Source of the DNA: an uncultured Anaerolineae bacterium
GTDB taxonomy: Bacteria > Chloroflexota > Anaerolineae > J036 > Brachytrichaceae
Direction of reading: 5' to 3'
DNA length: 64,000 nt
Assembly: GCA_938034415.1 (NCBI GenBank)
Contig: CALHLE010000030.1
Coordinates: 3,708 to 67,707, forward strand
The position numbers were made by a program, and so were the translations under genes. Positions 15,351 to 20,999 of this stretch are shown here, piece after piece; position 1 is the first letter of the stretch, and the number at the start of each line of letters is the position of its first letter. A model generated the notes under the pieces. It saw nothing but the letters and a program-made list of their open reading frames with translations, had not been told where the DNA came from and searched no databases.

Positions 15351-15743
15351 ATGCGTGCGCTGCAGCAGGTTACCTTGCTGTTCGTCGCGGGACTCGTCCT
15401 GACTGCGCCGCTGTTGTGCGTGCAGTTCTGCGAATTGCAACACCATATCGCCCGGCCGCAAGTCTCGTTTGCCGAGATGGCGCGGTTGCACGCGCTAAGC
15501 CTGTCCGAGCGCCAATCGCAACAGCGCACGCATCATCACAGCGACGACCGCGCACCCCTGATGCGGTTGAAGCAGATGGTGAACAGCGTCACCGAGTTTC
15601 TCCTGACGCTGGGCCTCGTATTTGGAGCATCTATAGCTGCGCTGCGCCCCGCCATTTTGCATTTACACCTGAGCCAGCCGGTGCTTGCTGTGCCCACACC
15701 GCCCCCACGCCTCTGCGCGATTCGCCCCATCCTCACGCCGTGA
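15351..15743 (+). CDS. Small Cys/His/Pro-rich membrane-targeted protein, CutF/DUF2946-like leader
   Basis: N-terminal hydrophobic segment ending in CVQFC (CxxxC), HHH patch, C-terminal PTPPPR; first gene of the copper operon. Confidence 0.6.
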   Translation: MRALQQVTLLFVAGLVLTAPLLCVQFCELQHHIARPQVSFAEMARLHALSLSERQSQQRTHHHSDDRAPLMRLKQMVNSVTEFLLTLGLVFGASIAALRPAILHLHLSQPVLAVPTPPPRLCAIRPILTP

Positions 15744-16894
15744 TGTTCGCCGGCGCGCCGAGCGCGTGCGGCGCGCTTGAGGCGCATCACGAAGGGTCTT
15801 CGCACACACGCGCTTGTGTCATCGCATCTCGGTTTCTAACTGGAGGCGTTATCAACGCACTGGAGCCGTTGGCGCGAGCGGTGCTTTATGTCGCGCTCAT
15901 GATCATGGTCGGCCTGCCGATCGGCATGGCCGGCGTCGTGCTGCCGGTCTTTCGCCGTCACGACGTCGCCGCACAGACCGCCCTGAAGTTCGCCAGACGC
16001 GGGCTGCTCGTTGCTTGTCTGGCAACGATGGTCGGCGCAACCGCGTTCTTCGTCGCGCAGGTCGCGCCGCTCGAACTGGAGTTCAGCAGCGTCGCGGAAT
16101 GGGCTGAGTTCGTGCAACGCGCGCTGCTGGGCCAGATGTGGATCGCACGGCTGGCGCTTGGGCTCGTTGCGCTGGTCATCGTGAAGTTCGGCGCGAATCC
16201 AGCAGCCTGGCTGGCCGGCTGCGCGCTGGCCGGGCTGGCGACGCAGGCCACTCTCACCCGCACTAGCCACAGCGCGGCGATGGGCGAGGGATGGCTGCCA
16301 GTCGCTGCGGACTTCGCGCACCTCTTCGCCGGCGCGTTGTGGGGCGGCGGCCTCATCGCTCTGCTTATCGCCGTGGGTGGCGCGCAGCGCGAGGACATCG
16401 AGACGACGCGCGCCCTGATCGGGCGCTTCGCGCCGTTCGGCATCGCCGGTGTGGCGCTCGCCGCCGGCACAGGCATCGCGCTCTCATCGGTGCACGTCGC
16501 CGACGCTGAAACGCTGCAGGCCTCTGACTACGGCCGGCTGATCCTGATCAAAGTTGTCCTGGTTGTAGGAGCAGTCGCGCTGGCGGCGCTGCACAGGTTC
16601 GTCATCCTACGGCGCATGAGGTCCCAGCTCGATGTGCGGCGCTTCAGGCGCGCGTTGCTGGTTGAGTCAATCCTGGTGCTCGGCATCTTCGCCGGCGCGG
16701 CCCTGTTGGCTTCCACCTCGCCGCCGCACCACGTGGTGACCCACCAGATGCCCGACGGCTCAACGCATATGATGCTGATGACAGATCCAGTCTTTCAGCG
16801 CGCGTTGCAGATCGCCGCATTGGCGATCCTCGCAGCGGGCGCCATTGCGTGCGCGCTGGAATGGCGCACACGCCTCCGATCTCAGACCAGATGA
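15743..16894 (+). CDS. copD: CopD family copper transport membrane protein
   Basis: TSHSAA, ADFAHLFAGALWGGGL, SDYGRLILIK, LLVE. Start uncertain: ATG 15743, or ATC 15851/TTG 15869 behind GGAGG at 15842. Confidence 0.85.
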   Translation: MFAGAPSACGALEAHHEGSSHTRACVIASRFLTGGVINALEPLARAVLYVALMIMVGLPIGMAGVVLPVFRRHDVAAQTALKFARRGLLVACLATMVGATAFFVAQVAPLELEFSSVAEWAEFVQRALLGQMWIARLALGLVALVIVKFGANPAAWLAGCALAGLATQATLTRTSHSAAMGEGWLPVAADFAHLFAGALWGGGLIALLIAVGGAQREDIETTRALIGRFAPFGIAGVALAAGTGIALSSVHVADAETLQASDYGRLILIKVVLVVGAVALAALHRFVILRRMRSQLDVRRFRRALLVESILVLGIFAGAALLASTSPPHHVVTHQMPDGSTHMMLMTDPVFQRALQIAALAILAAGAIACALEWRTRLRSQTR

Positions 16895-18105
16895 AAAGTT
16901 CGATTCGACTGACGGCGGTCTTCGCATTCGCCGCATCCCTTGTTTTGACGACGAACCGAGCGACCGAGGCGCACGCTATGCTCGTCAGCGCCGACCCGGC
17001 GCCGAACTCGACCATCGGAACTGCGCCCAAGCAGATCAAGCTGTTGTTCAATGAAGCGCTCCAGGATGTCGGACACACCATCGCCCTGCTCGACGAGAAG
17101 CAGAACAAGATTGCAATCGGTAAGGCGATGCTTGATCCGAAGGACCAGGCCAAAAAGACGGTGATTGCTGAGATACCGACAGCGCTGGCTGCGGGCAACT
17201 ACAGGGTGGATTGGAAGGCGCTGTCCACCGACGGTCACACCGTCAAGGGGAGCTTCAAATTCACCCTGGCCGAGATGGTCGAGATGACGTTGAAGTTCGC
17301 CTTCAAAGCGGGCAAAGAACCGGTCGCCTGCGGCAAAGAGATTAAGAACCTCGGCGCGCGGCGCACTACGGCGCAGATCATGGACGCCCGGATGTATATC
17401 TCGAACATCCGCTTGATCGGCCCCGGCGGCGAAGTGCCGTTCGAGCTCGTCCCAGACGGCAAGTGGCAAACCGACCGCGTGGCGCTGCTGGACTTCGAGG
17501 ATGGCAGCGCGATGTGCAAGGAGACCGGCAACGCCGACCTGCGCGATGTGATCATCGGCAAGGCCCCGGCCGGCAAATACACCGGCATCGTCTTCGACTT
17601 GGGCATCCCGTTCGAGCTGAATCATGCCGATGTAGCCGTCGAAGCGGCGCCGCTCAACATCCAGGCGCTGTGGTGGAACTGGCAGACCGGCTACAAGTTC
17701 GTGCGGATTGACCTGGCTACCAACAGCGCGCCGCCCAACGACAAGTGGTTCATCCACCTGGGCAGCACCGGCTGCGGCATGATGGAGAAGGGTCACAGCA
17801 GCGACCCGCACGGCATGGCCAACAAGCCGCCGGAGAAGCCCTGCAACAACCCGAACATAGTCACCGTCCGGCTCAACCGCTTCGACCCGAACAAAGATCA
17901 GATTGTGGCCGACCTGGCCGGCCTGTTGACGAACGTCAACATCGCCCAATCCACGCCCAAGCCGGCCGGCTGCATGTCCGGCGTGGACGATCCGGACTGC
18001 CGCCGGCTGATCCCGAACTTCGGCCTCTCACTGGCCAAAGGCCAATGTGTGAACGGCTGTCGCGGCCAGCGGTTCTTCCGCGTCGAAGCAGCCGCCAAAC
18101 CCTGA
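16891..18105 (+). CDS. CopC-MbnP fusion copper-binding protein
   Basis: Signal peptide cleaved at ATEA|H gives an N-terminal His; CopC domain (HAMLVSADP...STDGH) followed by an MbnP domain (VALLDFEDG, FDLGIPFELNH, WNWQTGYKF, IHLGSTGC, GCMS...DPDC). Confidence 0.88.
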   Translation: MKSSIRLTAVFAFAASLVLTTNRATEAHAMLVSADPAPNSTIGTAPKQIKLLFNEALQDVGHTIALLDEKQNKIAIGKAMLDPKDQAKKTVIAEIPTALAAGNYRVDWKALSTDGHTVKGSFKFTLAEMVEMTLKFAFKAGKEPVACGKEIKNLGARRTTAQIMDARMYISNIRLIGPGGEVPFELVPDGKWQTDRVALLDFEDGSAMCKETGNADLRDVIIGKAPAGKYTGIVFDLGIPFELNHADVAVEAAPLNIQALWWNWQTGYKFVRIDLATNSAPPNDKWFIHLGSTGCGMMEKGHSSDPHGMANKPPEKPCNNPNIVTVRLNRFDPNKDQIVADLAGLLTNVNIAQSTPKPAGCMSGVDDPDCRRLIPNFGLSLAKGQCVNGCRGQRFFRVEAAAKP

Positions 18106-18189
18106 TTCGTGATTCTGAGGCGCGGACGCGTCGCGCGCCTGCGCCTGTGAATCGAAGGTTTAACTTTTAGAAGGAGTGTAGTAAGAGAC

Positions 18190-18690
18190 ATGACGAACAC
18201 AAAGCATCACGTAGGCATCCGATACACGTTTCTGGCCGTCGCCGCCGGCGTTGCGCTGGCGTTGACGGCATGTGGAGGCGGCTCGGCTCCTGAGCCAACC
18301 CAGGCGCCGCCGGCTGCTCCGGCCGCCGAGCCGACTAAAGTGCCCGCCGATGTAGTGGCCAAGGGCAAGGAAGCCTTCAACAAATATGGCTGCCAGGCCT
18401 GCCACGCCATCCAGGGCTTTGCCGAGGGCGCCGTTGGGCCGGCCTTGGACAACTTGTACACTAACGCGCAGCGGACCATCGCCAGCGCTGAGTACAAGAG
18501 CAGCGCAGGCAAAGCGACGACGGCTGAGGAGTACGTCCGAGAATCCATCCTCAACCCCAACGCCTTCGTCGTCGCCCAGTGCCCCACCGGCCCCTGCCCC
18601 AAGGGCGTGATGATCCAGAACTTCAAGGACCAGATCAGCGACTCTGAACTGGAAGCGCTGATCGGCTACTTGATGACGCTGGGCCGCTAG
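18190..18690 (+). CDS. Monoheme c-type cytochrome lipoprotein
   Basis: Lipobox LALTA|C, CQACH, VGPALD, YVRESILNP. Confidence 0.9.
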   Translation: MTNTKHHVGIRYTFLAVAAGVALALTACGGGSAPEPTQAPPAAPAAEPTKVPADVVAKGKEAFNKYGCQACHAIQGFAEGAVGPALDNLYTNAQRTIASAEYKSSAGKATTAEEYVRESILNPNAFVVAQCPTGPCPKGVMIQNFKDQISDSELEALIGYLMTLGR

Positions 18691-18742
18691 TACGCCATCC
18701 GCGGATGGCGCAAGGGTGTAATGCCCCTCGCGCCATCCGCCC

Positions 18743-19441
18743 TTGCACATGACGCTGCCCAGATCCGTCGGCTACGCCTTCCTCGCCGCGTTACTGTGTG
18801 CCGGGATGGTCGCCGGCGCGCCCTTCGCCGGCCGCTTGGCGCGGCTCGGCATCGCGCGGGCGCGCATGCACCTGCGCATAGCCTGGCGCGCCATCGCGCC
18901 GCTGGCCATGCCGAAATACCTCGACGCCCCACTACAGCGCGCAATTCATGTTCGCGCGCCATCGCGTCCGCCCAGCGTGACCTTCGTGAACGGTCACATG
19001 GACCCTTTCACGCTGGATGAGCTGCGCGGCTATGGGGTGTTGCTGTTCTTCGGCACGCTCGATTGCGACGGAGGATGCTTGCGCGCCCTGGATCAGTTTG
19101 CGCGCGTGAAAGCCGCGCTCGGCGAGCATGCTGCGCGCGTGCGATTCGTGATGATCGGCGTGGACATCGAGCGCGACCGCCCGCGCCCGCTGCTGCGGCT
19201 GGTGCGCTCGTACGACCCAGACTTCATGGCGCTGACGGCAGATGCGCAGACGGTCATGCCTTTCGCGCACAAGCACGGCGTAACCGTGCTGCGGGCATCG
19301 CACTCGACCGGCAACATGCTCGTCCCGCTCACACCCTACATCATCTACTTGAATCCACAAGGCTTGTGGACGATGTGCTTCCCGTTGGGTATGTCGGCGG
19401 AGGAGATCGCCGATGAGATCATTTACTCGCTGGGGTTGTGA
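18743..19441 (+). CDS. SCO family protein
   Basis: FFGTLDCDGGC (CxxxC), VMIGVDIERD, IYLNPQG. Confidence 0.8.
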   Translation: MHMTLPRSVGYAFLAALLCAGMVAGAPFAGRLARLGIARARMHLRIAWRAIAPLAMPKYLDAPLQRAIHVRAPSRPPSVTFVNGHMDPFTLDELRGYGVLLFFGTLDCDGGCLRALDQFARVKAALGEHAARVRFVMIGVDIERDRPRPLLRLVRSYDPDFMALTADAQTVMPFAHKHGVTVLRASHSTGNMLVPLTPYIIYLNPQGLWTMCFPLGMSAEEIADEIIYSLGL

Positions 19442-19445
19442 AGCT

Positions 19446-20999
19446 ATGCGCCGCTCGCCCGGCGCACTGATGATTGCGCTGGCCCTGGCGTGCATCGGTT
19501 TGGGCTTGACCGCGATACTCCAGCCACAGCCGGCCGTCGCATCGCCACGCGCGTGGGTATGGGACCTGCCTCCGCACGTGCCGCCGCCGCGCGTGCCGGA
19601 ATGGAACCCGATGACGCCGGAGAAGTTCGAGCTGGGCCGCTATCTGTTCTACGACGTGCGTCTCTCCGGCAACGGCAGGCAAGCGTGCGCCACATGCCAT
19701 CAGCAGCGCCTAGCCTTCAGCGATGGGCTGCCTCAGAGCATCGGCAGCACCGGCGATGTCCACCCGCGCAACGCGCAGTCGCTCGCCAACGTCGCCTGGT
19801 TCTCGACGCTCACTTGGGCCAACCCGCTGCTCACCGAGCTCGAGAAGCAAATCCCGATCCCGATGTTCGGCGAATTCCCGGTCGAGCTGGGCATCACCGG
19901 CAAAGAGCAGGAAGTGCTCGGCCGCTTCCGCGCAGACCCGCAGTATCGCCGAATGTTCGCGGCGGCCTTCCCCGGCGAAGCCGAGCCGATTACCTGGAAG
20001 AACATCACCTATGCGTTGGCGACGTTCACCCGTGGCCTCACCTCTTTCGATTCGCCCTACGACCGCTACCTGGCCGGCGACCAGGCTGCACTCACCCCGT
20101 CCGCCATCCGCGGCATGCAGCTGTTCTTCTCCGAGGATTTAGAGTGCCATCACTGCCACACCGGTTTCAACCTGAGCGCTTCAACCACCTTCTCCGGCGC
20201 GGTCTTCATCGAACGGCCATTCTTCAACACCGGCCTGTACAACATTGACGGCAAGGGCGCCTACCCACCGGACAATGAGGGCGTAAAGGAATTGACCAAC
20301 GATCCAACCGACATGGGGCGCTTCCGGCCGCCGTCGCTGCGCAACGTGGCGCTCACCGCGCCTTATATGCACGACGGCAGCATAGCCACCTTAGAGGAGG
20401 TGATCCGCTTCTACGAGCGCGGCGGGCGCAAGATCGTCAGCGGGCCGTATGCCGGCGATGGACGGCTCAGCCCGTTGAAGAGTGGCCTGGTGTCCGGCTT
20501 CACGCTCACCGACGCGCAGCGACGAGATTTGATCGCTTTCCTGGAAAGCTTAACCGATTGGCAGTTCGTTACGAACCCGCGCTTCAGCGACCCCTTTGCG
20601 CCCGCACCGGCGATCCAGGCTACCCCCGCGCCGCGCCCGGCTGCGACGCCGATGGCCATCGCGCCATCGCCCACCGCGTTGCCGGTCTTCAGCCGGCAGG
20701 AATATCGCGCGCGCCTGAATGCCATAGTTGCAGACCTCGGCGTACTGAGCCGGTCAGTGCGGCGCGGAGACCGCGCTGCAGCGCAGCGCCTGGGGCGCCA
20801 GGTGCACGATCGCTTGCACGCCCTCCGCGCCACGTCGCAGCAACTCCGAGTCGGCGATGCGCACGACCGCGCCGAGGAGCATCTGCATGGTCAAGTGCTC
20901 GCTCGACTCACCGAAGCAGATGTCCGACCGGCGACCCTGGCTGCGTCCATCCGCGACCTGCAAGCCATGCTGCGCGCGATGGCAAAAGCCGCAAGTTGA
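19446..20999 (+). CDS. mbnH: MbnH family di-heme enzyme with C-terminal extension
   Basis: ELGRYLFYD, CATCH, CHHCH, FFNTGLYN, FRPPSLRNVALTAPYMHDGS; in an operon with mbnP. Confidence 0.88.
   Translation: MRRSPGALMIALALACIGLGLTAILQPQPAVASPRAWVWDLPPHVPPPRVPEWNPMTPEKFELGRYLFYDVRLSGNGRQACATCHQQRLAFSDGLPQSIGSTGDVHPRNAQSLANVAWFSTLTWANPLLTELEKQIPIPMFGEFPVELGITGKEQEVLGRFRADPQYRRMFAAAFPGEAEPITWKNITYALATFTRGLTSFDSPYDRYLAGDQAALTPSAIRGMQLFFSEDLECHHCHTGFNLSASTTFSGAVFIERPFFNTGLYNIDGKGAYPPDNEGVKELTNDPTDMGRFRPPSLRNVALTAPYMHDGSIATLEEVIRFYERGGRKIVSGPYAGDGRLSPLKSGLVSGFTLTDAQRRDLIAFLESLTDWQFVTNPRFSDPFAPAPAIQATPAPRPAATPMAIAPSPTALPVFSRQEYRARLNAIVADLGVLSRSVRRGDRAAAQRLGRQVHDRLHALRATSQQLRVGDAHDRAEEHLHGQVLARLTEADVRPATLAASIRDLQAMLRAMAKAAS

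Follow-up and report, generated by a model that had tools for sequence, protein, structure and literature searches.

The locus described here raises the question of whether a short open reading frame (ORF) in front of a copper operon encodes a working protein or controls, through its own translation, the genes that follow. It lies in a stretch of 64,000 nucleotides (nt), the window, from an uncultured hot-spring Anaerolineae bacterium of the Chloroflexota (GenBank assembly GCA_938034415.1, contig CALHLE010000030.1, positions 3,708 to 67,707 of the forward strand). On the plus strand, an ORF of 130 amino acids (15351..15743; MRALQQ...ILTP, with ATG at 15351 and TGA at 15741-43), referred to as the leader, precedes copD (15851..16894). 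The motifs of the leader, their spacing, its genomic position, the structure of the RNA behind it and the start codon of copD are all conserved. Going beyond this conservation, we infer as the best-supported reading a Chloroflexota variant of a copper-sensing arrest leader, whose RNA partner would be a hairpin or pseudoknot at its stop codon. The proposition that the ORF is a cis-acting regulatory leader, the functional counterpart of CutF and CruR of the Proteobacteria, is regarded as evenly balanced.

A conserved leader protein at the head of copper operons

The leader protein begins with a hydrophobic helix (15369..15422, residues 7-24, Kyte–Doolittle value 2.4) that follows Arg2 and forms a putative signal anchor or signal peptide. 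As judged by inspection and not by a predictor, it has no obvious AxA cleavage site, and it may be a signal anchor rather than a cleaved signal peptide. The sequence CVQFC (15417..15431), a CxxxC motif and putative copper site, is located at the outer end of this helix, and its cysteines C23 and C27 occur in at least 90% of family members. There follows a variable loop rich in His and Asp that contains HHH (15531..15539); the loop is His-rich throughout the family, with positions that are not conserved. A second hydrophobic helix (15594..15644, residues 82-98, Kyte–Doolittle value 1.9) is preceded by the conserved sequence PLxELxQMxxxVTEF. Close to the C-terminus is PTPPPR (15693..15710, with PPP at 15699-15707), a putative EF-P-dependent arrest motif whose prolines P117-P119 vary little or not at all in the family, and after ten further codons the TGA is reached. 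The hydrophobic N-terminus, CVQFC, HHH and PTPPPR had all been listed in an earlier sequence-only reading of this DNA, and each is present where that reading had placed it.

A search of 5.8 billion proteins returned 17 homologues of about 130 amino acids, and a profile search of 1.84 billion representative proteins returned only 37 clusters at 50% identity. The clusters span 100-150 amino acids, family members as a whole 102-154, and all are unnamed or “hypothetical”, and the taxa stated for them are Anaerolineae or Chloroflexota. The family is rare, being present in 6 of 401 sampled Chloroflexota genomes, and searches with hidden Markov models (HMMs) assigned the leader to no Pfam or NCBIfam family; Pfam likewise gave no match to any of 36 family members. 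The leader is most likely the first example of a Chloroflexota family that had no annotation.

The order of elements in the family consensus is a hydrophobic helix ending in APLLCxRFCEL, the variable His-rich loop, PLxELxQMxxxVTEF running into the second helix, and (V)PTPPPR. The best-conserved positions are C23, C27 and P117-119, and the C-x3-C form (CVQFC, CLRFC and others) is found in all 49 family sequences examined. The conservation of CxxxC and PPPR in homologues, a check that the sequence-only reading had called for, was thus examined and is found for both. The distance from CxxxC to PPP is 89 residues here and has a family median of 88 (range 77-109, mostly 86-90), despite an identity of about 25%.

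The tail beyond PPP is 11 residues long in this leader and 1-12 in nearly all members (median 7), with a variable sequence; even the residue that follows PPPR differs among orthologues (L, P, R, F and others). In two orthologous loci, L006 and L009, a nonsense TAA lies 18 nt past PPP, and the nucleotides 3′ of it, including the former TGA and the hairpin described below, are kept. The leader of cluster P0018 ends at PPPR and essentially lacks a tail. The C-terminal tail thus tolerates truncation.

Within the genus, the leader precedes copD in each of the 12 genomes. Behind more distant members lie genes for CopD/CopC-MbnP/MbnH, CopC-MbnP, a cytochrome c lipoprotein or a His-rich lipoprotein, and in every copper-related operon examined the leader gene is the first. 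There are three copies in the source genome. The second (G000:C6:8451-8789; L043 3946-4305, minus strand; CVAFC ... PKPPPRLAASSS) heads a PCu(A)C copper chaperone lipoprotein and SCO1 after a gap of 99 nt. The third (G000:C29:62781-63143; L067 1237-1668; CLTFC ... VPHPPPRAPEPLRRA) heads a Crp/Fnr-type regulator and two large membrane (cytochrome) proteins, one of which ends in a CxxCH haem motif. As the leader is always first and the copper cistrons behind it differ, a cis regulator fits better than a dedicated subunit.

A different explanation is that the ORF yields a small and stable membrane protein with two helices, whose CxxxC and His residues bind copper at the outer membrane face. It would serve in trans as a chaperone or accessory for copper trafficking, and PPPR would be a structural or cytoplasmic element that regulates nothing. 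This is considered possible but somewhat unlikely. The neighbours of the gene are copper chaperones and transporters, which could be its partners, and its motifs are conserved over the full length. An AlphaFold2 model with a mean predicted local distance difference test (pLDDT) score of 77.5 contains three helices (2-34, 40-57 and 68-107) and a coil tail, and includes the two hydrophobic segments; a fold search of the PDB with this model gave no match. However, the gene also precedes unrelated genes, including the Crp/Fnr regulator and a cytochrome c, which would be uncommon for a dedicated partner. PPP, which is nearly invariant, lies 1-12 residues before an end that is variable and tolerant of truncation, and PPPRL is the same as the proven arrest motif of CutF. 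Moreover, the gene always comes first, and the intergenic region behind it is structured and leads to a weak start codon.

The RNA at the leader–copD junction

The spacer between the leader and copD is 107 nt long and is more conserved than the leader protein itself. For its analysis, 17 distinct orthologous leader–copD junctions from genomes and metagenomes were aligned. A hairpin (15739..15791) is formed by the stems CGUGAUG/CAUCACG, CGCC/GGCG and GGCGCGCC/GGCGCGCU, with the UGA of the leader placed in the 5′ base. Its loop, GCGCGUG (15762..15768), is invariant in the 17 sequences except for one C-to-U change, which is compensated in the partner. This partner, CACGCGC (15807..15813), is paired with the loop in 100% of the 17 sequences, with one compensatory pair (C-G to U-A), and the distance between the two is 44-47 nt in 16 of them. 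Taken together, the hairpin and the loop–partner helix have 86.5-86.8% of alignment cells paired and 15 pairs with compensatory change, which was matched by 0 of 500 shuffles. The stems covary while the stop codon stays paired, as in UGACUC/GAGUCA of L040. In L050 and L051, two distant CopD-linked loci, the loop and its complement are retained and the stems differ.

The program RNAalifold favours an alternative extended helix, GCGCGUGCGGCG:CGCACACACGCGC, which competes with the 3′ arm of the hairpin. The spacer element therefore probably forms an H-type pseudoknot or acts as a switch between two states. A covariance model of the element finds exactly one copy per genome in 12 of 12 genus members, always at the leader–copD junction; in the 49 other relatives searched, only one weak match was obtained (E=0.003). 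The spacer matches no Rfam family at E<=1, and a canonical intrinsic terminator was not found in it. In the third leader copy of the source genome, the UGA is located in the loop of a perfect GCGCGC/GCGCGC hairpin. The GC palindrome was also considered as a DNA operator and rejected, as G.U alternations in the stems point to RNA; the motif occurs once in the genome and is no commoner than a reversed control pattern.

The sequence-only reading had proposed another RNA structure at this junction. In that proposal, the R-L codons that follow PPP (ACGCCUCU, 15707-14) sequester the copD Shine–Dalgarno (SD) sequence (GGAGGCGU, 15842-49), and a ribosome stalled at PPP sets it free. The complementarity itself exists. 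The proposed anti-SD ACGCCTCT (15707..15714, plus strand), which extends from the last base of Pro119 to the first base of Cys122, forms seven Watson–Crick pairs and one G.U pair with GGAGGCGT, which includes GGAGG (15842..15846), the probable copD SD that is kept in most genus orthologues. At -14.2 kcal/mol, this duplex is the best between the ribosome binding site (RBS) and the upstream 236 nt, and the helix is part of the minimum free energy fold of 15690-15870. A ribosome with Pro118 in its P site would cover the RNA to roughly 15717, and the pairing is retained in the nearest relatives, L002, L003 and L007.

Nevertheless, an equal or better duplex arose in 37% of 1000 dinucleotide shuffles of the upstream stretch; the caution that an 8-bp match may be due to chance at this GC content had been voiced with the proposal. 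The fold as a whole has a z-score of 0.03, being as stable as its shuffles. Among the 17 orthologues, 69.5% of cells in the anti-SD helix are paired, compared with 70.1% after shuffling of columns, and there is no covariation. The segment next to PPP is not the preferred partner of the RBS among the orthologues. Residues past PPPR are variable, and the predicted partner of the SD shifts from genome to genome between Pro codons, R-L codons and local pyrimidine runs. When the footprint of the stalled ribosome was masked in nested-structure modelling of 29 loci, the RBS became no more accessible, with an unpaired probability of 0.43 in the free RNA, 0.40 with a ribosome at PPP and 0.45 with one at the stop codon. 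The pairing is present with no evidence of function, and the release of the copD SD by this route is held to be highly improbable. A local SD hairpin (GUYUCU-loop-GGAGGC) was likewise set aside; it is weak, and its 78% pairing does not differ significantly from the 75% seen in shuffles.

Between PPP and the hairpin there is a C-rich, G-poor tract (15691..15740, plus strand) with a C/G ratio of about 3. In the 17 orthologues, the tract has a mean C content of 0.44 and G content of 0.20, as against 0.34 and 0.29 in the remainder of the ORF. The skew persists in orthologues where an earlier stop leaves the tract partly untranslated. This composition could suggest a CruR-type variant of the arrest leader, in which Rho loads onto the tract. 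While arrested at PPP, a ribosome would block Rho and allow transcription to enter copD, and its release would lead to Rho-dependent termination in the structured spacer. Rho is encoded in the genome, as is EF-P. CruR acts in this manner on a copper-uptake gene with a GC-rich spacer of 162 nt (PMC9426467), and expression that is switched off by copper would suit an uptake operon. Set against this, the tract is only about 50 nt long, its richness in C is partly forced by the Pro codons, and the skew is missing in two orthologues (L008 and L011). The conserved hairpin or pseudoknot would also be left without a role other than the pausing of RNA polymerase. The Rho variant is accordingly rated as quite unlikely.

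The start codon of copD and the operon

The codon ATC at 15851 is in the frame of copD and lies 4 nt past GGAGG. Ten distinct sequences have ATC or ATT in this column of the alignment (L001-L005, L008/L037, L010, L038 and the distant L050 and L051); L011 has ATG there and L052 has TTG. In L006, L007, L009 and L039-41, there is an ATG one codon upstream of the column, and in L034 a TTG adjoins the Glu codon. An in-frame TAG is located four codons upstream of the column in L002, and in L003, L005 and L008 there is no ATG, GTG or TTG between the leader stop and the start-column codon. The N-terminus of CopD that begins here, I-N-x-L-E-P-x-A-R-A-x-L-Y, is conserved and evolves as coding sequence.

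Further candidates were considered. An ATG at 15743 shares bases with the leader stop (TGATG) and, in the source genome, is in frame with copD, an overlap that the sequence-only reading had overlooked. It was rejected as the start, being in frame only in this genome: the indels of the spacer are not multiples of three, and the relation between the frames of leader and copD takes all three values across the orthologues. The ATG at 15899 was rejected as well, given that the 16 codons in front of it show the pattern of a coding sequence, with variation at 10 third positions and 3 second positions. They keep E-P-x-A-R-A-x-L-Y, and L011 has no Met at that site. In L003, L005 and L010, leader and copD share a frame with no stop past the UGA, so that read-through would fuse them. 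Read-through, selenocysteine insertion and a leader–CopD fusion were nonetheless dismissed, as the frame is closed or shifted in other orthologues and the spacer is thus non-coding.

Initiation of copD at AUC or AUU, with a non-AUG start at ATC 15851, is well supported. It is the best reading of the start because of the codon column, the upstream stop in L002, the lack of other start codons in L003, L005 and L008 and the failure of ATG 15743 to be conserved. The suggestion of a non-AUG start at 15851, made in the sequence-only reading, has thus held up across lineages. In L006 and L009, which carry the early leader stop, an ATG stands in place of the ATC/ATT context at copD, and this may be a compensation for broken coupling. 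The public copD calls in L050 (3359-4330) and L051 (2957-4063) begin at an upstream ATG or GTG and cross the RNA element. They are probably over-extended, with the homologous N-terminus starting at the downstream ATC AAT. Gene callers would mis-start copD in such genomes, either by extending it over the RNA element or by truncating it.

A weak and regulatable initiation from a non-canonical Ile codon is found in Escherichia coli infC, the gene for initiation factor 3 (IF3), which starts with AUU. Both infC and copD have conserved Ile-codon starts; the AUC/AUU of copD is located on a membrane transporter gene and has no known link to IF3 autoregulation. Taken together, the covarying RNA at the junction and the conserved weak start of copD point to post-transcriptional control at the junction.

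The product of copD matches Pfam CopD (PF05425; 2.2e-16, 60.6 bits against a cut-off of 32.1) and the NCBIfam CopD profile NF033808 (116 bits, which is under the equivalog cut-off of 195); in the latter match, residue 7 aligns to profile position 6. The remainder of the operon spans 16891..20999 on the plus strand and comprises a CopC-MbnP fusion (16891-18105), a cytochrome c lipoprotein (18190-18690), an SCO1-like protein (18743-19441) and the di-haem enzyme MbnH (19413-20999). At ATGA (16891-16894), the stop of copD overlaps the start of copC-mbnP, a classical translational-coupling junction, and the reading frames of sco and mbnH overlap at 19413-19441. Upstream of the leader there is a perfect 10-bp palindrome, AGTGCGCACT, at 15305-14, and a -10-like TATATT at 15336-41, only 9 nt ahead of its ATG. 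The nucleotides of the two are conserved among orthologues, including those in which the frame is a different one, and this pattern suggests a promoter and an operator, with a 5′ untranslated region that is very short or absent.

A proposed copper-sensing arrest leader and its likeness to known systems

Two known regulators provide the model for such a leader. CutF of Rhodobacter capsulatus (cutFOG) is shorter than 150 amino acids and has a Sec signal, a CxxxC motif and the C-terminal sequence P109EPEGPPPRL118 (PMC9973294; bioRxiv 10.1101/2025.02.05.636593). Its PPP is needed for the Cu-regulated production of CutO (bioRxiv 10.1101/2025.02.05.636593). CruR (Bp2923) of Bordetella pertussis, a DUF2946 protein, has CXXC and RAPP motifs that are 45 residues apart, a spacing kept within 1-2 residues (PMC9426467). 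In DUF2946, RAPP lies about 3 residues from the C-terminal end, and CruR controls a copper-uptake gene through Rho-dependent termination in the intergenic spacer (PMC9426467).

The leader shares with CutF a length below 150 amino acids, a hydrophobic N-terminal, putatively targeting segment, CxxxC, a C-terminal PPPRL and a position at the head of a copper operon with structured intergenic RNA next to it. The rules for ‘CutF-like’ proteins of Ozturk et al. 2023 (PMC9973294) concern length (<150 amino acids; 130 here), PPP (residues 117-119 of 130) and context (107 nt to copD, CxxxC and HHH, and an operon of CopD/CopC-MbnP/SCO1/MbnH), and the leader conforms to each of these three; for the N-terminal signal peptide that the rules also require, the leader offers the hydrophobic segment 7-24, a putative signal anchor or signal peptide inside the modelled helix 2-34. 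The supplementary text on CutF-like proteins in that paper (PMC9973294) makes no mention of Chloroflexota or CopD. Unlike CutF, the leader has a second hydrophobic helix, and no sequence homology between the two is detectable. The gap between CxxxC, which sits at the helix end, and PPP is about 88 residues in the leader and roughly 70 in CutF (by the numbering of the paper), and PPP is followed by 10-11 codons before the stop instead of 2. The stem-loop of the leader holds the leader's own stop codon, whereas the one behind CutF hides the SD of the next gene until the stalled ribosome melts it. The next gene encodes a putative importer, CopD, with an AUC start, while in CutF it encodes an oxidase exported by the twin-arginine translocation (Tat) pathway.

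In common with CruR, the leader is an upstream ORF that heads a copper-acquisition operon. The two share a Cys motif and a C-terminal Pro arrest-type motif at a conserved spacing. In both, the 3′ part of the ORF carries a tract rich in pyrimidines, and the intergenic region is long and GC-rich. The leader differs in having CxxxC rather than CXXC, PxPPPR rather than RAPP, and a spacing of about 88 rather than 45. The DUF2946 profile PF11162 (gathering score 23.7 bits) had no match at E<=1 in the leader or in any of 36 family members, and when 21 related genomes were searched in six frames at E<=10, the leader locus was not matched. The likeness to CutF and CruR drawn in the sequence-only reading thus stands for the CutF-like properties, the shared PPPRL and the position at the head of copper operons, and falls for membership of DUF2946. 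Only one marginal match to DUF2946 was found in 301 Chloroflexota genomes; as the domain is essentially absent from the phylum, its role would otherwise be unfilled there. The leader can also be compared with SecM, MifM and VemP, which likewise have an N-terminal targeting signal and a C-terminal arrest motif and affect a downstream cistron via mRNA structure. None of these has plain polyproline as its arrest motif, and what they sense is translocation or insertion activity instead of a metal.

In the proposed mechanism, the N-terminal helix would target the nascent chain to the membrane. By the time PPP is decoded, about 88 residues later, CxxxC would thus lie at the outer membrane face, probably together with the His-rich loop. 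Copper bound at the exposed site would alter the length of the ribosome arrest at PPP, and the dwell time there would set the expression of copD, copC-mbnP, the cytochrome c, sco and mbnH. Arrested at PPP, the ribosome would extend to about 15717-15720. The hairpin begins about 20 nt past this point and can therefore stay folded. A ribosome that proceeds to the UGA would have to unwind the base of the hairpin, and with it the hairpin or pseudoknot fold. The likely gate is this fold combined with the weak AUC at which copD starts; it could act on translation or on the access of Rho to the C-rich tract. The membrane topology, the copper binding, the stalling and the direction of regulation are those that we infer, and a switching-off of expression by copper is the more plausible direction for an uptake operon.

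Several observations weigh against an arrest leader of this kind. Conservation spans the whole leader protein and includes EMARLHALSLSER and PLxELxQMxxxVTEF in addition to the two motifs; with the confident three-helix model, it would suit a stable membrane protein. The family is not detectably homologous to DUF2946. The PPP codons lie 40 nt upstream of the hairpin, so the geometry of CutF, in which the stalled ribosome melts an adjacent stem-loop, is not reproduced, and the hairpin itself is 50 nt upstream of the SD. In addition, nested-structure modelling leaves the accessibility of the RBS unchanged wherever the ribosome is placed.

A more specific form of the arrest leader would be a three-part Chloroflexota switch, consisting of a membrane-inserted nascent-chain copper sensor, the stop-codon hairpin with its pseudoknot, and the AUC start of copD. 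The sensor (CxxxC, about 88 residues, PPPR) would decide whether the ribosome reaches the UGA buried in the hairpin, and the unwinding of the pseudoknot fold would license copD initiation at AUC. Its logic would be opposite to that of CutF, as the RNA would be remodelled by the ribosome that escapes arrest and not by the stalled one. This scheme in its entirety is considered doubtful. If true, one metal-sensing device would combine an arrest peptide with a pseudoknot and a non-AUG start.

The locus has two oddities of its own: the AUC/AUU start of a transporter gene across lineages, and a covarying stop-codon hairpin with an invariant loop and a downstream complement. To our knowledge, Proteobacteria are so far the only bacteria in which ribosome-stalling metal sensors such as CutF and CruR have been demonstrated, and these sensors are tied to DUF2946. 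If the arrest-leader reading is true, the leader family would extend the principle of the stalling sensor to the Chloroflexota by means of an independent protein architecture, and would link it to the poorly understood CopCD/MbnPH copper-acquisition operons.

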